Origin: Caulobacter sp.
GTDB taxonomy: Bacteria; Pseudomonadota; Alphaproteobacteria; Caulobacterales; Caulobacteraceae
Assembly: GCA_044239675.1 (NCBI GenBank)
Contig: JBIIAX010000005.1
Location: forward strand, 125,024 to 189,023
DNA: 64,000 nucleotides
Direction: 5' to 3'
The notes under the pieces were generated by a model. It had not been told where the DNA came from. It searched no databases and worked only from the letters and a program-made list of their open reading frames with translations. The number at the start of each line of letters is the position of its first letter. Position 1 is the first letter of the stretch. Of the stretch, positions 3,821 to 58,292 are shown piece by piece. A program made the translations under genes and the position numbers.

Positions 3821-4330
3821 GCGCCCGACGCAGGCTCGTCCCGCGGATTGGCCTCCGCCGTGGGGGTCGGGAACTTATGCAATGAGCAGGGGATCAGGCG
3901 ACGTTCGGACGACGTGCTGAAATAGAGCATGGGCGGCGAGCCTATCGAAGCGGTCGGCCATTATCCCACACCGGGCGATGTCCACCGCGCGCTCCAATCC
4001 AGGCACGCCGGCGCTGATTGTTTCCCTGGGAGCAGAAGGCCGTCCCCATGGCGTGGGCGAGACGCGCGGGCGCTCGACCAGAGCCCGCGGCGGCGCGCTC
4101 GGTCAGCCGGCGCGAAACGGATTGAGCGCAAGATGCGACCGTCGCCTCGTTGTGTGGCTAGGTGTGGGCGGCCAGGACAGGCTGCATGAATGGAGCGGGA
4201 GCCGCCCGGAATTCGTCCCGCCCCCACATCGAACACAGGGCACCATAGAATGCACTGTCACCCGGTACTCCTCCTCTTCAATGAGGAGCGTGAATCACGT
4301 TCTGGGCTCAAGGGAATCCCGGAGGGGGAC

Positions 4331-8250: not shown

Positions 8251-9720
8251 ATGGCGGACTTCGACTGCGATGTGCTGATCGCCGGCGGCGGGCCCACGGG
8301 CGTGACGCTCGCCATCCTGCTGGCGCGGCGTGGCGTCAAGGTCATCGTCGCCGAGAAGGAGCCGGCGATCTTTCCGCTGCCGCGCGCGGCCCACATCGAC
8401 CACGAGGGCATGCGCATCCTGCAGGAGACGGGGGCTGCCGATGAGATCTTCGCGACGAGCCGCCGCGTCACCCGCTATGATTTCCTCGACGCTCGCCGCC
8501 AGCTGCTGATGCGCTTCGATGGCGCCGATCGGATCGGCCCCGGCGGCTGGCCCGGCGCCAACATGATCCATCAGCCCTCGGTCGAGACCGCGCTGCGACG
8601 CTCGCTCGCCCGCCAGCCGCAGGTCGAACTGCGCCAGGGCTGCGAAGTGCGGTCGTTCGTCGATGACGGCGCCGGCGTGACGACCGAAATCGCCGTGGCG
8701 GGAGCCGTCCGCACCGTTCGAAGCCGCTATCTGATCGGCGCCGATGGCGCGCGATCGTCCGTCCGCACGGCCGCGGGCGTCGTCTTCAATGACCTGCGTT
8801 TCGAGGAGCCCTGGCTGGTGGTGGACGTGCTCGTCGACGATCCAACCCGGCTGCCGACCGCCAACCTGCAGATCTGCGATCCCCGGCGCCCGACCACCTG
8901 CGTCCTCATGGGCGAGGGGCGGCACCGCTGGGAGTTCATGATCCTGCCTGGTGAGACCCCCGAGCAGGTTGCCGCGGACGCGTTCATCGAGACGTTGCTG
9001 GAGCCCTGGGACGTCAAGGGCGCGGTCAGGATAGAACGGAAGGCGGTCTACACCTTCCAGGCCCGCATCGCCGAACAGTGGCAAAAAGGGAAGGTGATTC
9101 TGGCGGGCGACGCCGCCCACCAGACGCCGCCTTTCGCCGGACAGGGCCTGTGTTCCGGCCTGCGCGACGCTTCCAACCTGGCCTGGAAGTTGGCCGCGAT
9201 CGTCGTGGACGGCGCGCCCGAGGGCCTGCTGGACAGTTATCAGACCGAGCGAGGACCGCATCTGCGGGCGACGATCGATACCGCCGTGACAATGGGGCGG
9301 ATGGTCTGCACGACCAATCGCTGGTCGGCCCTGGCCCGCGATCTGAAAATCCGGCTCGCGCGCGCCCTGGGTAAGATGCCGGCAGGGTCTCCAAGTTATC
9401 CCGCGATCGCCGAGGGCGTGATCCTGGCGGGCGCTCCGGGCGCGGGACTGTATTTTCCCCAGCCGGTTTCGGCCGACGGGAATCGCCTGGACGATGTCCT
9501 GGGCCCAGGGAGCTGGCTGCTGTCGCGCGAGGACCTGCAGGCCCCGAGAACGCTTCCGTTCGCCGGACCGGTCGCCCGCTGGCTCGATGCATATGGGGTC
9601 GAGGCGGTGCTGGTAAGGCCCGACCGCTACGTCTACGGCGCCGGTTCGCCCGATCATCTGCGCGCCGCCTGGGCGGCGGCGATAAGCCCGGGCGCCCCGC
9701 CAAGCGCCGAGCGCACCTGA
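8251..9720 (+). CDS. FAD-dependent phenolic monooxygenase, MhpA-like
   Basis: GGGPTG, GADGARS and LAGDAAHQTPPFAGQGLCSGLRDA FAD motifs; C-terminal LVRPDRYV thioredoxin-like tail. Confidence 0.88.
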   Translation: MADFDCDVLIAGGGPTGVTLAILLARRGVKVIVAEKEPAIFPLPRAAHIDHEGMRILQETGAADEIFATSRRVTRYDFLDARRQLLMRFDGADRIGPGGWPGANMIHQPSVETALRRSLARQPQVELRQGCEVRSFVDDGAGVTTEIAVAGAVRTVRSRYLIGADGARSSVRTAAGVVFNDLRFEEPWLVVDVLVDDPTRLPTANLQICDPRRPTTCVLMGEGRHRWEFMILPGETPEQVAADAFIETLLEPWDVKGAVRIERKAVYTFQARIAEQWQKGKVILAGDAAHQTPPFAGQGLCSGLRDASNLAWKLAAIVVDGAPEGLLDSYQTERGPHLRATIDTAVTMGRMVCTTNRWSALARDLKIRLARALGKMPAGSPSYPAIAEGVILAGAPGAGLYFPQPVSADGNRLDDVLGPGSWLLSREDLQAPRTLPFAGPVARWLDAYGVEAVLVRPDRYVYGAGSPDHLRAAWAAAISPGAPPSAERT

Positions 9721-51726: not shown

Positions 51727-52710
51727 CTAGAACTTCGGCTCCGCCAGCCACCGGCTGGCGCTGCTGACCATGGCCTCCAGGTCCCGGGTTGGCCGCCATC
51801 CCAGATCGGCGTCAGCGGCCTGCGCGTCGGCGATCAGAATAGGCGGATCGCCGGGTCTCCGGTCGCCGATCACATGCGGAACGGGCCGCCCCAGGGCTCT
51901 TCCCGCCGCCTCGATCACCTCGCGAACCGAGATCCCCCGGCCCGCGCCCAGATTCCAGATCCTGCTTTCTCCGCCGTCCAACAACCATTCAAGCGCGCGG
52001 ATGTGGGCGTCGGCCAGATCGGTTACATGCACATAGTCCCGCAGAGCCGTGCCGTCCGGCGTCGGATAGTCCTGCCCGAAAACCGTGACCGGCGAATTGT
52101 GGGAGATCGCCGCCCGGCAGATCAGCGGAATCAGATGGGTCTCAGGGTCATGACTTTCACCGATCGAACCGCCGGCGTCCGCGCCGGCGGCGTTGAAATA
52201 GCGAAGGATGGCTGATCGGAACTGCCCGGCCTGACCGAGCCAGCCCAGCAGCGATTCGAACGCCAGCTTTGAGGCGCCATAGGGATTGATCGGAACGAGC
52301 GGTGAGGCTTCCGGGGCCGGAACGACTTGCGGCAGGCCGTACACGGCGGCCGTCGAGGAGAAGACCATGGTCTCAACGCCATTGGCGATCAGCGTCCGGA
52401 CGAAGCGGATCGGCGCGGCGGTGTTATTCTCGAAATAGCGGAGAGGGTCGCGCATGCTCTCGCCGACCTGGCTGTAGGCGGCGAAGTGCATGGCCGACCT
52501 TATGTCGTAGGTCGCGACGACCGCCGCGACCGTCGCGTCGTCGCCGATGTCGCCCAGTTCAAGTGGTCCGAACTGCACGGCCTCGGCGTGACCGGTGCTG
52601 AGGTTATCGAGGGTCACCGGCAGATAGCCGGATTCCGCCAGCGCCTTGCAGACATGCGAGCCGATGTAGCCCGCGCCACCGGCGACAAGGATCGCGCCCT
52701 TGGAACTCAT
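51727..52710 (-). CDS. galE: UDP-glucose 4-epimerase
   Basis: GGAGYIGSH, FSSTAAVYG, YGASK, LRYFNAAGA and RDYVHVTDLADAH motifs. Confidence 0.95.
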   Translation of the reverse strand: MSSKGAILVAGGAGYIGSHVCKALAESGYLPVTLDNLSTGHAEAVQFGPLELGDIGDDATVAAVVATYDIRSAMHFAAYSQVGESMRDPLRYFENNTAAPIRFVRTLIANGVETMVFSSTAAVYGLPQVVPAPEASPLVPINPYGASKLAFESLLGWLGQAGQFRSAILRYFNAAGADAGGSIGESHDPETHLIPLICRAAISHNSPVTVFGQDYPTPDGTALRDYVHVTDLADAHIRALEWLLDGGESRIWNLGAGRGISVREVIEAAGRALGRPVPHVIGDRRPGDPPILIADAQAADADLGWRPTRDLEAMVSSASRWLAEPKF

Positions 52711-52722
52711 GTCTGGTGAGGC

Positions 52723-53490
52723 TTAGTAGGAGCCGCGGCGGAAGATGACCACCGGGACGGTGGCCACGAGTATCCAGGCGTCGAGGCCGAGACTCTTCGA
52801 CCGGACGTAGGCGGTGTCGATGGCGACGCGGCGGCGGTAGGACAGATCATTGCGACCGCTCACCTGCCACAGACCGGTGATGCCCGGACGGACGGACTGG
52901 TAATGGATGAAGTAGCGGCCGTAGCGAGCGCCTTCTTCGGCCACGATCGGGCGCGGGCCCACAAGGCTCATCTCGCCGCGCAGGACGTTGAACAGCTGGG
53001 GAAGCTCATCGAGGCTGGTCTTGCGCAGAAAGGCGCCGATCCGGGTGATGCGGGGATCGTTCCGCAGCTTGTGATCCAGGGCCCATTCCGCGCGTGCTTC
53101 AGGCGATTCAGCCAGCAGCCGCTCCAACCGCTCCTTGGCGTCGACCGCCATGGACCGGAACTTCATGCAGGGGAAACTGCGGCCGTCGCGGCCGACCCGG
53201 CGGTGGGCGAAGAAGATCGGACCGCCGTCGTCAAGCCGAACCAGAAGGGCCGTTAGAAGCATCAGCGGGGCCAGGGCGACGAGCAGCAGGCTGGCCAGGA
53301 TCACGTTGATAATGCGTTCGCCGTCCCAAGACCGGCGCCGCGTATCAGGCCGAACCAAGGGGCTCGGAGACATTGACGCGGCGTGGGCAAAAATCTGCCG
53401 CTGCGGTGACGGAACGCTGTGAACGTCCGCTTCGCGGTGGCGTGCATCGATGCGGGATGTGAATTCCGCGCTGGGCTGCATTAGGGACAT
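52723..53490 (-). CDS. Priming undecaprenyl-phosphate glycosyl-1-phosphate transferase (ExoY/WbaP-like, small PGT)
   Basis: [34 protein letters not shown] and [14 protein letters not shown] motifs. Confidence 0.93.
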
Positions 53491-53645
53491 GCCTCACGTT
53501 CGCCTTCGCACTGCAGCAAGAGCAACCACGGCGGCCAAAATTCTCGCTGGCCGTCGCCGCTACATCAATTGTTGCGGCTTTTATCAGCAGGTTATGCCGA
53601 AAAACAACCCAACCAGGGTAAGAACCCGCGAATTATTTCAGACAC

Positions 53646-53674
53646 GAAAAAGCCGGCAACCTGGGTTGCCGGCT
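53646..53674 (-). terminator. Intrinsic terminator downstream of small protein 1
   Basis: AGCCGGCAAC/GTTGCCGGCT stem followed by a U-tract on the minus strand. Confidence 0.75.
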
Positions 53675-53726
53675 CTCAAGACGCATCCTGACGCGAAAAA
53701 CACCCGCGCCACGCGATGGGGGAACC

Positions 53727-54005
53727 CTACGGGGATTCGTCCTCGTCCAGTTCGCTGATCGCGAGGGCGCCGGCGGCGGCGACGCCGCCGACGATCAGGA
53801 GACCGGTGGTGGTCTCGCTCAGCTCGCTGGTCCGGCCCTTCTCAGCGCCGACGCGCTTCAGGGTGGCGGCCTTGGCCTTGGCCTTGGCGGGCTTGGCCGC
53901 GACAGCGGCGGAAGCCGTTGACGGGACAAGGTTTTCTGCCATCGCCGGGCCGGCGAGGGCAGCCAATGCCAGCAGCCCGACGGCCGCTGCTTTTAGTGTC
54001 TTCAT
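53727..54005 (-). CDS. Small secreted protein, paralogue 1 (LKRxGAxKGR / SP-terminal family)
   Basis: 92 aa; GGAGG RBS; signal peptide ending AMA; LKRVGAEKGR; hydrophobic helix; ELDEDESP end; homologous to the two upstream ORFs. Confidence 0.85.
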   Translation of the reverse strand: MKTLKAAAVGLLALAALAGPAMAENLVPSTASAAVAAKPAKAKAKAATLKRVGAEKGRTSELSETTTGLLIVGGVAAAGALAISELDEDESP

Positions 54006-54025
54006 CAGAAACCTCCTTCAAGGAC

Positions 54026-54060
54026 AGCGCCAATACGGACGGGCCAAATGGCCAGACGCC
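54026..54060 (-). promoter_or_regulatory. Conserved structured 5' leader, copy 1
   Basis: mRNA GGCGUC-U-GGCC-AUUU-GGCC-N10-GGCGCU; same geometry as copies 2 and 3. Confidence 0.65.
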
Positions 54061-54271
54061 ACAATCTCATCTTTAACCGGAGCAGAGGCCCCGGGCGCAA
54101 GCGCGGAACTGTGACATTATGAAACGGCATACCGCACTGCCGCATTTTTGGCGTCTCGGCCCTGCCCCCGTCCATCCCCTGATCGGATTTCGGGCGCCGG
54201 AGATCCAGGTTCAGTGGCGGGAGCCCACGCCCGAGGCCGCACCTTCCGCAGACTATCGGACATCAACGCCG

Positions 54272-54302
54272 AAAAGGGTCGGCAGCAAAAGCCACCGACC
54301 CT
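54272..54302 (-). terminator. Probable intrinsic terminator downstream of small protein 2
   Basis: AGGGTCGG/CCGACCCT stem with a short U run on the minus strand. Confidence 0.55.
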
Positions 54303-54351
54303 CGTCAAAATTCGTTCGGACTGGCGCTAGTCGAGACCAGCGCCGGCGCAA

Positions 54352-54639
54352 CTACGGGGAAGAGGGCGCGCTGTCGTCGCCCTCAAGCGCGACCGCGCCG
54401 GCGACGACAGCGACCACCCCGGTGACAACCATCAAGGATTCCCACCTGAATTCGCCGACTTGAGCATTGACCCGGCCCTTTTCAGCGCCAGCGCGCTTCA
54501 GAGCGGCCTTGGCCTTGGAGGCTTTCGCGGCCTTCGCCGTCGCGGCGGCGGGCACCTTGGCGGCGGTTTGGGCGAGCGCCGGGCCGGCGACAAACGCCAG
54601 GGCGGTGAGACCCAGAACTGCGGCTTTGAAACTCTTCAT
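54352..54639 (-). CDS. Small secreted protein, paralogue 2
   Basis: 95 aa; signal ending ALA|Q; LKRAGAEKGR; hydrophobic helix; EGDDSAPSSP end. Confidence 0.85.
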   Translation of the reverse strand: MKSFKAAVLGLTALAFVAGPALAQTAAKVPAAATAKAAKASKAKAALKRAGAEKGRVNAQVGEFRWESLMVVTGVVAVVAGAVALEGDDSAPSSP

Positions 54640-54655
54640 CGGAAATCCCCGTCAC

Positions 54656-54690
54656 AGCGCGCAGGATTTTTGACCGTCTGGTCAGGCGCT
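54656..54690 (-). promoter_or_regulatory. Conserved structured 5' leader, copy 2
   Basis: mRNA AGCGCC-U-GACC-AGAC-GGUC-N10-CGCGCU; compensatory changes relative to copies 1 and 3. Confidence 0.6.
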
Positions 54691-54874
54691 GATCAAGGCG
54701 ATTAAAGCCCAAAGCGCCAGTTGGTTGCAATACCGCAGTTGTAGAGGCCGCGGATTTGTCGGGGGATGGCGCTTTTTTACCGCACCATTTCGCCCTGCCT
54801 AGCCGGAGGCGCCTCGGCTCGCCCCCTTACCCCGCCTAGCCGTCGCCGGCCGCAAAACAGGTTCTAACGACGCA

Positions 54875-54905
54875 AATAGGCCGGTGGCGACGCCACCGGC
54901 CTATT
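54875..54905. terminator. Long perfect hairpin downstream of small protein 3
   Basis: AATAGGCCGGTGGCG-A-CGCCACCGGCCTATT read directly. Confidence 0.7.
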
Positions 54906-54949
54906 GATCTTCCAGCCGCCCGGAGTTGGGCGACGAAATACTGCGCGTC

Positions 54950-55228
54950 CTACGGGGACTCGGCTTTGTTGTCGTCGGCGATTTGCGTGATGGCGATCGC
55001 CCCAACGATAATGCCCCCGACGGTGACCAACGGAATGAACGACGGCGAGTCGACAATATCGCCATTGGTCCGGCCCTTTTGGGCGCCGACACGCTTCAGC
55101 GACGCGGCCTTGGAGGCCTTCGAAGCCTTGTAGGCGGGAGCCTTGGCCGGAGCGACCGTCTGCGCGAGAGCGGGGCCGGCAATGGCGACGGCGACAGCCG
55201 CGACCAGGGCAGCTTTAAGAGTCTTCAT
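54950..55228 (-). CDS. Small secreted protein, paralogue 3
   Basis: 92 aa from ATG 55228 with GGAGG RBS; LKRVGAQKGR; hydrophobic helix; DDNKAESP end. Confidence 0.85.
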   Translation of the reverse strand: MKTLKAALVAAVAVAIAGPALAQTVAPAKAPAYKASKASKAASLKRVGAQKGRTNGDIVDSPSFIPLVTVGGIIVGAIAITQIADDNKAESP

Positions 55229-55248
55229 CAGATCCTCCATGATAGAAA

Positions 55249-55283
55249 AGCGCCAGATCGGACGGGCCAGGTGGCCGGACGCC
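55249..55283 (-). promoter_or_regulatory. Conserved structured 5' leader, copy 3
   Basis: mRNA GGCGUC-C-GGCC-ACCU-GGCC-N10-GGCGCU. Confidence 0.65.
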
Positions 55284-55599
55284 TAATTCACCCTCTTAAT
55301 CCCGATTCTGGCGAAGAATTGCAAGCGCCATGTTACCGGCTGGGTGTATTTTGCGCTGCACTGCCGCATTTCGACATCAGGGTTCACGCCGGGACCCTTT
55401 CCGGACCGGTTGGGTTCGCTGGCCTCGCAAGGCCGCCCGGCCTGCCCGTCTGATCAACAGATGGCGCCTCTCTCTTGCACTGCAGCATCCAAACTGACGC
55501 ACTTGCCCGATCCGCCAGCCTTGATGGCTTTACGGCGGACGGACCGGCGGGCGATGTCCTGATCCCGCCCTCGGGCAGGCTGGAGACTGGAGCGACGTC

Positions 55600-55884
55600 A
55601 TGGTCACCCTCGAGTTCATGCTGGGGTCGGATAGGGACGCGGGCCGGTTCGACCTTGCCCTCTATCGTTTTTTGGAATCCGGGGATTTCAGGCCGGACGT
55701 CGATGACGATCTGGCGATGTGCCACACTACCCCATTGAGAGACTGCACCTTGAAACAGGTGGTCTTCTCCTGCGCGCGGATGGCCGAGGCTTTCGTGCTG
55801 TTCTGGAGCGGATTCGAAGACCCCGCGGGGAGGGCTCCCTGGGAGGACTGGCGCTCGGCCATCGGCGCGGCGACCGCCCATTGA
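55600..55884 (+). CDS. Hypothetical protein (94 aa)
   Basis: ATG with GGAG 7 nt upstream and natural-looking composition; no family recognised. Confidence 0.35.
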   Translation: MVTLEFMLGSDRDAGRFDLALYRFLESGDFRPDVDDDLAMCHTTPLRDCTLKQVVFSCARMAEAFVLFWSGFEDPAGRAPWEDWRSAIGAATAH

Positions 55885-56069
55885 GGCGACGTCCCGGCGC
55901 TCTGTGAACGCCTTGCCGAGCCTTCGCCCAGCTTGTAGGCAGTCGTGCTGGCTGGCGGTTCGGAGCGAACGGCCGGACAGCGAACCCATCCCTCGCGGAT
56001 TCGAATCCCGCGGCTTGCCGCGACCCTGACAACCTGACGCCGGCCTACGGCGGTCGCCAAGGGCAACCT

Positions 56070-58292
56070 ATGCTTCATCCAGTGATTGTTTGCGGTGGTT
56101 CTGGGTTGCGGCTTTGGCCTGCGTCGACACCCGCGCGGCCGAAACCCTTCATCCCGCTGATGGAAGGCCAGTCCACCTTCGGTCAGGCGCTGTTCCGGGT
56201 CGGCCAATTCGCTTATGCCGCGGAGACCATCGTGGTCGCGGGGCCCGCCCATGCCGGACTGATCGAGGCCGAACTGGCCAGGCAGGGAATGGTCGGCACG
56301 GTGGTGGTCGAACCGGAGGGCCGCGATTCCGCTCCCGCCATGGCCGCCGCCGCCGAGCTCGTCCGCCGCCGCGATGCCGATGGCGTCTGTATCTTCCTGG
56401 CCGCGGACCATGACATCAGCGACCATATGGCCTTCGCCGCTGTGGTCGAGACCGCGCGGCAGCTGGCCCTGACCGGCGGCATCGTCACGCTTGGCGTCAA
56501 TCCCACAGGGCCTTCAACCGCCTACGGCTACATCCAGCCGGGGGACCTGCTCGGCCAGGGCGAGGGGCGCCGGGTGAAGGCCTTCGTCGAAAAGCCAGAC
56601 CACGACCGCGCCCTGCGCTTCCTCAGCGAAGGCTTCCTCTGGAACAGCGGCATGTTCATCTGCCGGGCCGATGTCCTGCTTGAGGAACTGGCCACCCACG
56701 CGCCGGCCGTGGCCCGGTGCTGCGAAGAGGCCGTGGCCACCGGCGCCCTGGACGGCGGGCAGTTTCATCTGGGCCAGGTGTTCCGCACGACCCCGAAGAT
56801 CTCCATCGACTACGCCGTCCTGGAAAAGACCGACAAGGCCCTGGTCCTTCCCGCCGCCTTCGCCTGGTCCGACCTGGGCGCCTGGGACGCGGTCCTTGAA
56901 CAGTCTTCGCGCGATCCGGCCGGAAACTACGGCGATGGCGAGGTTCATCTTCAAGGGGCCGAGAACTGCCTCGTTCGCGCCGGACCCGGAATGACCATCG
57001 CCGCCGCCGGGACCCGCAATCTGGCGATCATCGCCGAGGGCTGCTCGGTGATGGTCTGCGACCTGGCCAACACCACCGACCTGAAGGCCCTGATCGAACG
57101 GGTCAACGCCAGCGCCGCCGCCGTGCCTGGCCCCTCGGCGCGAGCGCTCGGCGCCCGGTTCGAGACCTGGCTGATGACCGCCGCCCTGCCCCTGTGGTGG
57201 ACCCTGGGCGCCGACCACGCGGGCGGCGGCTTCCAGGAACTGATCGGCCAGGATGGCCGGCCGGTCGAGGCCGATCGCCGCCTAAGGGTCCAGGGCCGCC
57301 AGACCCACGTCTTCGCCCGCGCCGGCATCGATGGCTGGACGGGTCCCTGGCGACAGGCGGTTAAGCACGGCCTCGACGCCCTGTCCGGCCGCTATCGCCG
57401 CGAGGACGGACTGTACCGCACCCTGGTCACCCCGGACGGCGCGTCGAAGAATGACGAGGCCTGGCTCTATGACCAGGCCTTCGTCCTGCTGGCCCTGGCC
57501 TCGGCCACCGCGGCCGGCGTCCGCGCCGAGGCTTGCAAGGCGGAAGCCCGAGACCTGCTGACCGCCATTCGAGGCGCCTATAGTCATCCGTCCGGCGGCT
57601 TCCGTGAAATCACCGCCCTGAGCTTCCAGTCCAATCCCCTGATGCACCTGTTCGAGGCGGCCCTGACCTGGATGGAAACGGATGGCGAGCCGGTCTGGAA
57701 GGATCTGGCCCAGGAAATCGTCGACCTGATCCTGATTCGCCTGCTCGATTCCGAGGGGGGCCCCCTGCGGGAGTATTTCGACTCCGACTGGAGTCCGGCG
57801 CCCGGACGCAACGGCGCGGTGGCCGAGCCAGGCCATCAGTTCGAATGGGCCAGCCTGTTGACCCGCTGGGCCAGGCTCACCGGCGACGATGGCGCTCTGA
57901 TCGCGGCCCGCAAGCTCTATGACTGCGGGGCCAAGGGGGTAGACAACCGGCGCGGCGTGGCCATCGACGAGATGGACACCTCATTCAACTGGGTCCGCCG
58001 CTCAGCCCGCCTCTGGCCGCAGACGGAGCGGATCAAGGCCGCCGCCGCGCTGGCGGCGCTGGAACCTGAAGGCGGACGCATGCAGGCCGACGCCCTGGCC
58101 GCCGCGCAGTCCCTGTGGCGCTACCTCGAAACGCCGGTCCAGGGGCTGTGGCGCGACCGCCAGGATATCTCCGGCGGTTTCCTGGATGAACCGGCGCCCG
58201 CCAGCAGCCTCTACCATATCCTCGGCGCGGTCGAGGCCATCGGGGCCCTGGCCCAGACGACCGCGCCGGAACCAGTCCCCGCCGAGGCCTGA
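56070..58292 (+). CDS. manC: Mannose-1-phosphate guanylyltransferase fused to an AGE-family epimerase/isomerase
   Basis: N-terminal VIVCGGSGLRLWP, EPEGRDSAPA, WNSGMF, SIDYAVLEK, WSDLGAW; C-terminal RVQGRQ, SNPLMHLFEA, EPGHQFEW, RLWPQTE, SSLYHI. Confidence 0.88.
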   Translation: MLHPVIVCGGSGLRLWPASTPARPKPFIPLMEGQSTFGQALFRVGQFAYAAETIVVAGPAHAGLIEAELARQGMVGTVVVEPEGRDSAPAMAAAAELVRRRDADGVCIFLAADHDISDHMAFAAVVETARQLALTGGIVTLGVNPTGPSTAYGYIQPGDLLGQGEGRRVKAFVEKPDHDRALRFLSEGFLWNSGMFICRADVLLEELATHAPAVARCCEEAVATGALDGGQFHLGQVFRTTPKISIDYAVLEKTDKALVLPAAFAWSDLGAWDAVLEQSSRDPAGNYGDGEVHLQGAENCLVRAGPGMTIAAAGTRNLAIIAEGCSVMVCDLANTTDLKALIERVNASAAAVPGPSARALGARFETWLMTAALPLWWTLGADHAGGGFQELIGQDGRPVEADRRLRVQGRQTHVFARAGIDGWTGPWRQAVKHGLDALSGRYRREDGLYRTLVTPDGASKNDEAWLYDQAFVLLALASATAAGVRAEACKAEARDLLTAIRGAYSHPSGGFREITALSFQSNPLMHLFEAALTWMETDGEPVWKDLAQEIVDLILIRLLDSEGGPLREYFDSDWSPAPGRNGAVAEPGHQFEWASLLTRWARLTGDDGALIAARKLYDCGAKGVDNRRGVAIDEMDTSFNWVRRSARLWPQTERIKAAAALAALEPEGGRMQADALAAAQSLWRYLETPVQGLWRDRQDISGGFLDEPAPASSLYHILGAVEAIGALAQTTAPEPVPAEA

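Follow-up and report, generated by a model that had tools for sequence, protein, structure and literature searches.

Directly upstream of the priming sugar transferase gene (Bac_transf) of a Wzx/Wzy-type polysaccharide cluster in a Caulobacter sp., three small genes follow one another on the minus strand, and each of them is preceded by the same short element. Does this element work as RNA in the leader of each gene, does it work as DNA, or is it simply what the duplication of one unit has left behind? We addressed this question in the window, i.e. the whole 64 kb stretch of DNA analysed here. The three small genes are real. They are paralogues (48-52% identity). Each encodes a protein with a signal peptide, a conserved LKRxGAxKGR box and a hydrophobic segment at the C-terminus, and each is followed by a terminator hairpin of its own (Table 1), so that each gene would form its own transcription unit. 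For gene 3 the homologous start is the ATG at 55228 (MKTLK), not the in-frame ATG upstream of it at 55240.

Table 1. Features of the three small genes and their leaders, in window positions. SD, Shine-Dalgarno region; promoters are predictions made by eye.
Feature	Position	Strand	Sequence or remarks
Leader element copy 1 (gene 1)	54060 to 54026	minus	GGCGTC T GGCC ATTT GGCC CGTCCGTATT GGCGCT
Leader element copy 2 (gene 2)	54690 to 54656	minus	AGCGCC T GACC AGAC GGTC AAAAATCCTG CGCGCT
Leader element copy 3 (gene 3)	55283 to 55249	minus	GGCGTC C GGCC ACCT GGCC CGTCCGATCT GGCGCT
Small gene 1 (92 aa)	53727..54005	minus	signal peptide, Ala/Lys-rich stretch, LKRVGAEKGR box, C-terminal hydrophobic segment, acidic tail ending SP
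Small gene 2 (95 aa)	54352..54639	minus	paralogue
Small gene 3 (92 aa)	54950..55228	minus	paralogue; start is the homologous ATG
Predicted promoter, gene 1	54072..54100	minus	TTGCGC (54100-54095), 17-nt spacer, GTTAAA (54077-54072); ends 11 nt before element
Predicted promoter, gene 2	54701..54730	minus	TTGCAA, 18-nt spacer, TTTAAT; ends 10 nt before element
Predicted promoter, gene 3	55296..55324	minus	TTGCAA, 17-nt spacer, GATTAA; ends 12 nt before element
Linker and SD, gene 1	54006..54025	minus	GUCCUUGAAGGAGGUUUCUG; SD outside element; invariant in X6 and X8
Linker and SD, gene 2	54640..54655	minus	GUGACGGGGAUUUCCG; complementary to copy 2 internal loop
Linker and SD, gene 3	55229..55248	minus	UUUCUAUCAUGGAGGAUCUG; 3' part and AUG complementary to copy 3 internal loop
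Terminator hairpin, gene 1	about 53646-53674	minus	with T run
Terminator hairpin, gene 2	about 54271-54303	minus	with T run
Terminator hairpin, gene 3	54875..54905	minus	perfect 15-bp arms, then T-rich tail TTTGCG

All three elements are 35 nt long and have the layout 6+1+4+4+4+10+6 in common. The first-pass annotation had described this geometry ahead of all three small genes, and it is borne out by sequence, coordinates and offsets, the elements ending 20, 16 and 20 nt before the ATGs of genes 1, 2 and 3 (at 54005, 54639 and 55228). In copy 1 the outer 6-bp helix (GGCGUC/GGCGCU) contains two G.U pairs, and it encloses an inner hairpin (GGCC-AUUU-GGCC) and, on the 3' side, a 10-nt internal loop (CGUCCGUAUU). 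Copy 3 has the arms of copy 1, with the loop ACCU and the internal loop CGUCCGAUCU, while copy 2 consists of an outer helix AGCGC(C)/(C)GCGCU, an inner hairpin GACC-AGAC-GGUC and the internal loop AAAAAUCCUG. Both stems previously described for copy 2 are present, but a C.C mismatch stands in place of its sixth outer pair, the outer arms having been quoted as 5 nt long. The element exists beyond chance: in the region upstream of gene 2, its exact geometry at that offset arose in 29 of 20000 dinucleotide shuffles. A covariance model scored copies 1, 2 and 3 at 45.2, 40.3 and 44.3 bits, respectively, and its next best match in the 64 kb, which lies within a coding region, at 22 bits.

The differences between the copies are unevenly distributed. 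Copies 1 and 3 differ at 6 positions, of which none is among the 20 paired and all are among the 15 unpaired ones (Fisher p=0.003); copies 1 and 2 are identical at 15 of 20 paired (75%) versus 3 of 15 unpaired positions (20%, p=0.002). It had been claimed that the loops drift freely, and these contrasts agree with that view, the stem arms being conserved; the CGUCCG of the internal loop is common to copies 1 and 3. Taken as a whole, the element is an island of 72-79% identity, while the rest of the upstream region is 30-50% alike and the SD linker 55%. A similar picture emerges from runs X6, X7 and X8, which contain close relatives (X6/X7 represents a relative roughly 95% identical); runs X2-X5 are identical to the window and added no variation. 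Inside the elements these relatives show only one change at a paired position, where it repairs the C.C mismatch; four more affect loop or internal-loop positions, and 15 changes fall within the 40 nt that precede the elements. The repair occurs in copy 2 of X6/X7, where 54661 G>C restores the sixth pair and the 3' arm reads GGCGCT; further changes in the same copy are 54662 C>A, 54671 T>C and a deletion at 54667, and its internal loop comprises 9 nt, not 10. Copy 3 has a single change in X8, at loop base 55270, and copy 1 is unchanged in X6 and X8, where the 40 nt upstream of it contain 4 and 7 changes. Judged from these comparisons, the stem arms are under constraint.

For compensatory evolution, the sequences make a weak case. 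The substitutions between the copies comprise a single genuine double change (G-C to A-U) and two changes of the wobble type, and one pair is broken. With 5 arm substitutions, chance leaves at least 9 of the 10 pairs intact in 4-15% of trials, and a pair-count control gave 46 of 500. Of the compensatory substitutions first proposed, one genuine double change therefore stands, but not the strength attributed to them. Similarly, the proposal that selection acts on RNA structure rather than on DNA is upheld by the arm constraint and by a helix specific to the gene strand (see below), but not by covariation or by folding z-scores.

Relatives further afield have a related but different structure. 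A profile search retrieved about 13 homologues of the small proteins; a phmmer-type search with a small protein returned the query itself only, peptide-pattern scans of genome and metagenome contigs confirmed no relative, and a DNA pattern derived from the CDS had 0 matches in metagenome contigs. The orthologues are single-copy genes of Caulobacteraceae-type polysaccharide loci, and they have a simpler hairpin with related arms in the same place, ~10 nt after a promoter-like -10 box. Their promoter is stronger (TTGTGA-N17-TATTAT, or GCTATTAC), and their hairpin (GGGYGC...GCGYCY), which begins 9-10 nt after it, has arms that align with those of the window at a 1-nt shift. The arms are spaced by 23 nt in the window versus 8-11 nt in the orthologues, and the cross-genus arm changes are all pyrimidine transitions opposite G. 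Extending the covariance model to orthologous loci, as had been advised, yielded matches to the three window copies only: there was no match at the orthologous leaders, where the 35-nt architecture is absent, and a search with filters off found three copies only in the 64 kb and none in 20 related loci. Nor did Rfam, the other resource named at that stage, supply a family at the elements, as Rfam 15 at gathering thresholds returned one tRNA only in the window and a search at E<=10 over 52500-57000 gave no match overlapping the three elements.

Folding each leader with RNAfold, likewise an earlier suggestion, recovers the proposed structure as the MFE fold of copy 1 (-11.7 kcal/mol, z -0.31) and copy 3 (-11.7 kcal/mol, z +0.28), and a near-identical fold for copy 2 (-11.0 kcal/mol, z -1.93), in which both stems are kept, an extra U7-A20 pair is formed and the sixth pair is shifted. 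The X6/X7 variant of copy 2 reaches -14.1 kcal/mol (z -2.83). Compared with shuffled sequences, copies 1 and 3 fold no better, and the whole predicted UTRs have z values of -1.1 to +1.1. On the antisense strand the outer helix is absent in copy 1 and partial in copy 3. In both copies this helix is specific to the gene strand because it needs the two G.U pairs, which favours RNA over a DNA palindrome.

Transcription of the element is suggested by promoter-like boxes. The layout TTGC(G/A)N, 17-18 nt, A/T-rich hexamer, 10-12 nt and 5' arm is common to all three genes, and that of gene 1 matches the orthologues. The boxes are weak matches, and a consensus promoter scan reported none of the three predicted promoters. 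Since they end 10-12 nt upstream, the element is probably transcribed, and from the distance between the predicted -10 boxes and the 5' arm, 3-5 unpaired nt would be expected at the predicted 5' end. In X8 the gene 1 promoter has an insertion after 54080 and a deletion at 54093, and as both lie within the spacer, its length is kept. The gene 2 promoter is unchanged in the X7 contig, in which 54697 and 54699, between -10 box and element, vary; in X8 the positions that vary between the -10 box of gene 3 and its element are 55291 and 55292. The helix lies 5-10 nt upstream of the SD, which it does not occlude (folds of -11.0 to -14.1 kcal/mol, a stability not above that of shuffled sequence).

The element is most simply read as an ordinary hairpin of the 5' leader, and the evidence for a new regulatory RNA is slim. 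The reading we prefer, at a probability of about 0.35, is a transcribed stem-loop at or near the 5' end of each of the monocistronic mRNAs, with stabilisation as its most likely role. Its GC-rich outer helix of 5-6 bp, 4-bp inner hairpin and asymmetric internal loop would stand at the mRNA 5' end or a few nt from it, and each short mRNA is predicted to encode a small exported, membrane-anchored protein. Selection would maintain the helix arms, and the hairpin would most likely guard the 5' end against 5'-end-dependent decay (pyrophosphate removal followed by RNase E entry), which could keep the small-gene mRNAs abundant. Because the promoter positions are predictions, the 5'-terminal location is a predicted one as well, and the stabilising function a putative one. 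Precedents for such a role are the ompA, papA and aprE mRNAs, which are stabilised by 5'-terminal hairpins, since RppH and RNase E depend on a 5' end that is single-stranded (PMC3997798). Like the leaders of E. coli ompA and papA and of B. subtilis aprE, the element is a GC-rich hairpin predicted to start a few nt from the transcript 5' end, is situated upstream of the SD, which it excludes, and heads a short mRNA whose product is exported or belongs to the envelope. Unlike them, it is built as a helix of two tiers with an internal loop of 10 nt and occurs in three paralogous copies, and it has no sequence relationship to these leaders. Two observations count against a plain stabiliser, which leaves them unexplained, namely that copies 1 and 3 have kept CGUCCG in their internal loops and that the whole gene 1 leader is invariant in relatives.

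Alternatively, the element could have no function at all: the leaders would stem from one duplicated unit, their GC-rich near-palindromic arms (GGCGCC-like) would self-pair, and few sequences together with chance would account for the remainder. We consider this unlikely. Folding no better than shuffles is what it would lead one to expect, as is the occurrence of a relaxed form of the geometry in 22% of shuffles, and it fits both the one double compensatory change and the restriction of cross-genus arm changes to pyrimidine transitions opposite G. However, an island of identity between diverged flanks, the SD linker included, speaks for constraint, as do differences that avoid paired positions, relatives that gather changes just upstream and not in the arms, and the persistence of related arms across genera.

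Rather unlikely, in our view, is a leader hairpin that serves as recognition site for a trans-acting RNA-binding protein or small RNA, to which the helix would present its loop or internal loop; translation or decay of the small-gene mRNAs would then be controlled together with polysaccharide synthesis. Such a site could explain why arms and CGUCCG are kept between copies 1 and 3, why the gene 1 leader is invariant from element to ATG in two relatives whose sequence directly before it differs by 7-17%, and why the arms GGYGYC/GCGYCY are kept across genera whose small proteins are only about 30% identical. Yet no candidate factor is known, the sequences of loop and internal loop are wholly different in copy 2 and in the orthologues, and there are neither an Rfam family nor further copies in the 64 kb, as a regulon site might show.

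A more elaborate possibility is an H-type pseudoknot, with the outer helix as stem 1 and the internal loop paired to its own SD/AUG region as stem 2, which would act as a paralogue-tuned translational brake. We regard it as distinctly improbable. The duplex energy between internal loop and own initiation region is -9.5 kcal/mol for copy 3 (p 0.03-0.06), -7.1 kcal/mol for copy 2 and -10.1 kcal/mol, with 9 bp, for copy 2 of X6/X7. All three loop changes of X6/X7 improve the pairing, as random changes of the like do in 1.6% of trials, cognate pairs exceed non-cognate ones for copies 2 and 3, and loop lengths suggest, by inspection and not by computation, that the fold is sterically possible. The hypothesis is post hoc, however, and copy 1 does not conform to it (-5.0 kcal/mol, p 0.46; its loop prefers the initiation region of copy 3); copy 2 does not surpass random 10-mers drawn from the local composition (p 0.29), and the orthologues are without consistent loop-SD complementarity. 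It is similarly improbable that the window lineage turned an ancestral leader hairpin into a small riboregulator in which the internal loop co-evolves with its own SD/AUG as such a pseudoknot, thereby individually tuning translation of three copies of a dosage-sensitive polysaccharide regulator. ROSE elements are about 100 nt long and belong to rhizobial heat-shock genes. The element resembles SD-sequestering leaders of this kind, and translational pseudoknots, as a structured 5' UTR of an alphaproteobacterium whose internal loop, in copies 2 and 3, could base-pair with SD/AUG; unlike in ROSE, the SD lies outside the 35 nt, there is no Rfam match at E<=10, and the complementarity is weak and, in copy 1, absent.

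It is also quite doubtful that the element acts as DNA, either as a repressor operator just after the start site or as part of an unusual promoter, with RNA starting at its 3' edge or downstream of it. In favour of this, the inner GGCC-N4-GGCC and GACC-N4-GGTC form DNA palindromes without a mismatch, the arms show conservation at the sequence level, and a separate motif, TGCNGCAGTGC, is a conserved DNA site at this locus. Transcripts of the locus were found in one metatranscriptome only (X10), as two exact contigs of ~190-200 nt, and the one over gene 1 (53833-54023, ~190 nt) has its 5' edge 3 nt downstream of element 1, which would suit such a start. Being ~190 nt long, like the sole other exact contig, it may be a single amplified fragment, and it does not show transcription of the element. 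As DNA, copies 1 and 3 have no inverted repeat in their outer arms, because the two G.U pairs become A.C on the opposite strand. Moreover, a symmetric half-site change from GGCC to GACC/GGTC would not be tolerated by a single dimeric protein, the spacing of the arms is 23 nt here versus 8-11 nt in the orthologues, and no -10/-35-like or ECF-like boxes within the element are common to the three copies.

Several known classes of element were rejected: a sigma-54, ECF or RpoH-type promoter inside the element (no shared boxes by eye), an SD-sequestering leader or RNA thermometer such as ROSE or fourU (the element ends 16-20 nt before the ATG, with the SD outside), a riboswitch (35 nt, free-drifting loops, no U-tract, no SD helix, no Rfam match), an intrinsic terminator or attenuator (what comes after the 3' arms is GUCCUU, GUGACG and UUUCUA, and a scan gave no terminator at the elements) and a REP/BIME-like dispersed repeat (no copies beyond the three in 64 kb, none in 20 related loci).

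Returning to the leader hairpin as putative stabiliser, it would, if real, be an unnamed leader motif controlling a tiny, previously undescribed family of ~92-aa envelope proteins, always encoded next to the priming glycosyltransferase in a polysaccharide cluster of the freshwater Caulobacteraceae type. This position recalls the rhizobial ExoX/ExoY dosage switch, and the leader could be a handle on the amount of surface polysaccharide. In rhizobia, ExoX/PsiA-type proteins inhibit the priming glycosyltransferase (ExoY/PssA), and the gene dosage ratio matters (PMC3233446). The likeness concerns genes and not RNA: as with ExoX/PsiA, the gene of a small membrane-attached protein adjoins the Bac_transf gene of an exopolysaccharide cluster, but the proteins of the window carry a signal peptide that looks cleavable and an anchor at the C-terminus, and their gene is triplicated. 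Searches of the small proteins against Pfam/NCBIfam at E<=1 gave no relevant match beyond noise, and membership in ExoX/PsiA/SyrA was rejected, as no profile matched and the analogy is one of position by Bac_transf only. As it stands, the element is a lineage-restricted 5' UTR hairpin of three paralogues, with two sequence variants, useful for annotation and no surprise to specialists.

Other searches produced candidates that were discarded. The element pattern had 27 matches in genome contigs, all chance-like and most of them in GC-rich actinomycete genomes, and the sole alphaproteobacterial match lies inside a coding region. When synteny was followed via Bac_transf and the 740-aa NTP-transferase/epimerase, the loci reached, in Caulobacter and Sphingomonadales, were without the small gene, and an apparent small-gene match in one locus (L058) was spurious. 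Finally, RNAalifold applied to the orthologue group gave a different, long-range CUCAU/AUGAG pairing, part of which would lie upstream of the predicted transcription start.

On the gene strand, the positions and the 6+1+4+4+4+10+6 layout that the first-pass annotation gave for a structured leader ahead of three small genes (g1-g3) are exact, and the 3' ends of the elements lie 20, 16 and 20 nt ahead of the ATGs (copies 1, 2 and 3). In isolation, the minimum-energy fold of copies 1 and 3 is the proposed structure (-11.7 kcal/mol each), and that of copy 2 (-11.0 kcal/mol) is nearly identical to it. The layout needs one correction, a C.C mismatch as sixth outer pair of copy 2. The fit of copy 2 to this geometry is not chance: the geometry recurs at a comparable offset in 29/20000 dinucleotide shuffles of its own upstream region, and a relaxed geometry in 22% of shuffles. 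Under a covariance model built from the structure, the three copies reach 45, 44 and 40 bits, and the next match in the 64 kb, within a coding region, reaches 22 bits. This match (8521-8559, minus strand), the sole other one below E=0.1 in the window, lies in a stretch of 87% G+C inside long ORFs of both strands and appears to be a chance hit. Rfam holds no family for the element; a terminator, a riboswitch, an RNA thermometer and a dispersed repeat were each rejected, the defining feature having been tested and having failed.

Coordinates of features in the small-gene locus (window positions) and in related loci (positions in the locus named)
Feature	Position	Strand	Remark
Element copies 1 / 2 / 3	54026-54060 / 54656-54690 / 55249-55283	minus	35 nt
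g1	53727-54005	minus	92 aa
g2	54352-54639	minus	95 aa
g3	54950-55228	minus	92 aa from homologous ATG
g1 predicted promoter		minus	TTGCGC-N17-GTTAAA-N11, our reading
g2 predicted promoter		minus	TTGCAA-N18-TTTAAT-N10, our reading
g3 predicted promoter		minus	TTGCAA-N17-GATTAA-N12, our reading
Internal loop/SD-AUG complementarity, copy 2	54662-54671 with 54640-54655		
Internal loop/SD-AUG complementarity, copy 3	55255-55264 with 55226-55237		
Bac_transf ORF as listed	52723-53490	minus	255 aa
94-aa ORF	55600-55884	plus	divergent
TGCNGCAGTGC sites	53508-53518, 54134-54144, 55358-55368, 55477-55487	read on minus	
TGCNGCAGTGC in orthologues	L041-L056		~23-33 nt upstream of divergent 63-aa ORF
TGCNGCAGTGC in Sphingopyxis	L008 5714-5724; L010 5638-5648		
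Divergent 63-aa ORF	L041 3409-3600	minus	equivalents in L045, L049, L051, L054
CUCAU/AUGAG pairing	L041 3956-3960 with 3992-3996		RNAalifold; equivalents in other loci
X10 RNA contig	53305-53504		Bac_transf 5' part, 2 mismatches
X10 RNA contig	53833-54023		g1 5' part, exact

The strongest signal of selection is the placement of the differences between copies. Copies 1 and 3 differ at 6/35 positions, and each of the six belongs to the 15 that are unpaired (Fisher p=0.003); copy 2 agrees with copy 1 at 15/20 of the paired but 3/15 of the unpaired sites (p=0.002). The element forms an island of 72-79% identity between g1 and g3 in upstream sequence that is otherwise barely alignable, the Shine-Dalgarno (SD) linker 3' of it being less conserved. 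Independent changes were taken from public metagenome contigs of close relatives (runs X6, X7 and X8). Element 1 and the remaining g1 leader are unaltered in X6 and X8, in which the adjoining 40 nt upstream show 4 and 7 changes, and element 3 is changed in the tetraloop only. The X6/X7 variant of element 2 has four changed sites. One replaces the C.C mismatch by C-G and so gives the 3' arm of copies 1 and 3, GGCGCT; the others fall in the internal loop, now 9 nt. The variant folds at -14.1 kcal/mol, better than 200/200 shuffles.

Of the selection on RNA structure that had been claimed, the part that stands is that the stem arms are constrained; selection on pairing itself is no more than suggested by these sequence comparisons. 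The alleged compensatory substitutions reduce to a single true double change, from G-C to A-U in the inner stem, beside two one-sided wobble changes and one break. For the five arm substitutions, chance alone leaves at least 9/10 pairs intact in 4-15% of trials, varying with transition bias; the pair-count control is unremarkable (46/500), and copies 1 and 3 and all predicted UTRs fold no better than shuffles.

The best-supported reading, to which we assign a probability of about 0.35, is that of a stem-loop which would stand at the extreme 5' end of each small-gene mRNA, outside the ribosome binding site, and would most likely shield the mRNA from 5'-end-dependent decay. Such protection is afforded by 5' stem-loops of the ompA, papA and aprE mRNAs (PMC3997798), and by analogy the window element may work like them. 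A stabilising role accounts neither for the CGUCCG that is conserved between the internal loops of copies 1 and 3 nor for a g1 leader that is invariant throughout; a rival reading takes the leader as the site of an RNA-binding factor. Alternatively, the internal loop may pair with its own SD/AUG region in a pseudoknot: in copies 2 and 3 the 10-nt loop complements this region over 7-9 bp, the predicted energies are -9.5 kcal/mol for copy 3 and -10.1 kcal/mol with 9 bp for the X6/X7 variant of copy 2, and 3/3 loop changes in that variant improve pairing. However, copy 1 is without such pairing, and the idea is post hoc. A third rival is a DNA operator or promoter element; an RNA rather than a DNA palindrome is favoured, because the outer helix, with its two G.U pairs in copies 1 and 3, is not properly formed on the opposite strand. 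The last rival is an element without function.

A protective 5'-terminal stem-loop depends on where transcription starts. One RNA data set holds the locus, the 'plant metagenome' metatranscriptome X10, with two contigs and no other match across 20 kb; the window organism is from lake water. The g1 contig ends 3 nt downstream (3') of element 1, which at face value places the 5' end where the first-pass annotation would have abandoned its leader. We treat this end as uninformative on the start site, because both contigs (~190-200 nt, even depth) are as expected of single amplified fragments.

In the leaders of loci carrying an orthologous small gene, a covariance-model search did not find the 35-nt element. 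These leaders consist of a good promoter (TTGTGA-N17-TATTAT or GCTATTAC), then 9-10 nt, then a hairpin with the arms GGGYGC and GCGYCY set 8-11 nt apart, ~20 nt with the SD, and the ATG. Their hairpin arms align to the window arms upon a 1-nt shift, and all arm differences are pyrimidine transitions opposite G, which would be compatible with pairing and with plain sequence conservation alike. The window leaders have an orthologue-like layout with weaker promoter boxes; the predicted g1-g3 promoters were not called in a consensus promoter scan, and in X8 the g1 spacer carries one insertion and one deletion that cancel. In the orthologue leaders (alignment A6), RNAalifold proposes for 10/10 sequences that AUGAG of the SD region pairs with CUCAU, which directly follows the -10 box (L049 has the U.G-compatible AUGGG), a pairing that would be relevant only if transcription starts earlier than predicted.

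The three small genes are paralogues (48-52% identity), whose products begin with a signal-peptide-like N-terminus (MKTLKAA...AGPALA-Q), contain an Ala/Lys-rich stretch and an invariant LKRxGAxKGR box, and finish with a C-terminal hydrophobic segment and an acidic tail whose last residues are SP. Each gene is probably a separate transcription unit, since each has its own hairpin and T run or T-rich tail 3' of it. The locus lies within a Wzx/Wzy-type polysaccharide cluster, in which, along the minus strand, a bifunctional NTP-transferase/GlcNAc-2-epimerase gene and the 94-aa ORF (both divergent, on the plus strand) are followed by the three small genes, Bac_transf (the priming sugar transferase), an epimerase, Poly_export and Wzz/tyrosine kinase. 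The 94-aa ORF has no Pfam or NCBIfam match. Bac_transf as listed exceeds the 239 aa of most orthologues. An internal Met (MSPSPLV, ~53373) would set the TGCTGCAGTGC motif ~135 nt upstream, as for g1 and g3, but the longer form is transcribed, since the X10 contig extends to 53504.

The by-products of this analysis, namely a small-protein family with an ExoX-like position, its triplication and an 11-nt motif, TGCNGCAGTGC, are perhaps more interesting than the hairpin. A single-sequence search of 5.8 billion proteins returned the query alone, an exhaustive search of 1.84 billion representatives with a profile yielded 7 proteins, and a profile built from those 7 yielded 13. The family (~13 members at 90% clustering among the 5.8 billion) is unannotated and its proteins, ~92 aa long, carry a signal peptide, the conserved box (L/V)xRxxAxxGR and a hydrophobic anchor at the C-terminus (loci L040-L056 and the window). 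The homologue contigs come from freshwater metagenome assemblies, and some of these bear the label Caulobacteraceae; where the contigs are long enough, the homologue always directly precedes Bac_transf, with a small conserved ORF and the NTP-transferase/epimerase gene running divergently from it. The small ORF (63 aa, …SYSFQLS.ESDSRWRWSVVDVDGRLNASGLS…), which in orthologous loci separates the homologue from the NTP-transferase/epimerase gene, is unrelated to the 94-aa ORF at its place in the window. The small gene is single-copy in all other homologous loci, so only the window lineage has it in triplicate. The ExoX/PsiA inhibitors of ExoY/PssA are likewise encoded beside a priming transferase (PMC3233446), but have no sequence similarity to the window proteins.

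All four copies of TGCNGCAGTGC in the 64-kb window fall inside this 2-kb locus (expected 0.26; 0/100 shuffles reach four). Two of them precede the ATGs of g1 and g3 by ~130-140 nt, another stands ~250 nt ahead of g3, and the fourth is 18-28 nt before the annotated start codon of Bac_transf; for g2 there is a degenerate copy only. These polysaccharide loci probably share the motif as a transcription-factor site. It occurs once per locus, at one conserved place, in the 12 orthologous Caulobacteraceae-type loci found to carry it, and in two Sphingopyxis genomes it stands just upstream of a TTGAC-type promoter before Bac_transf.
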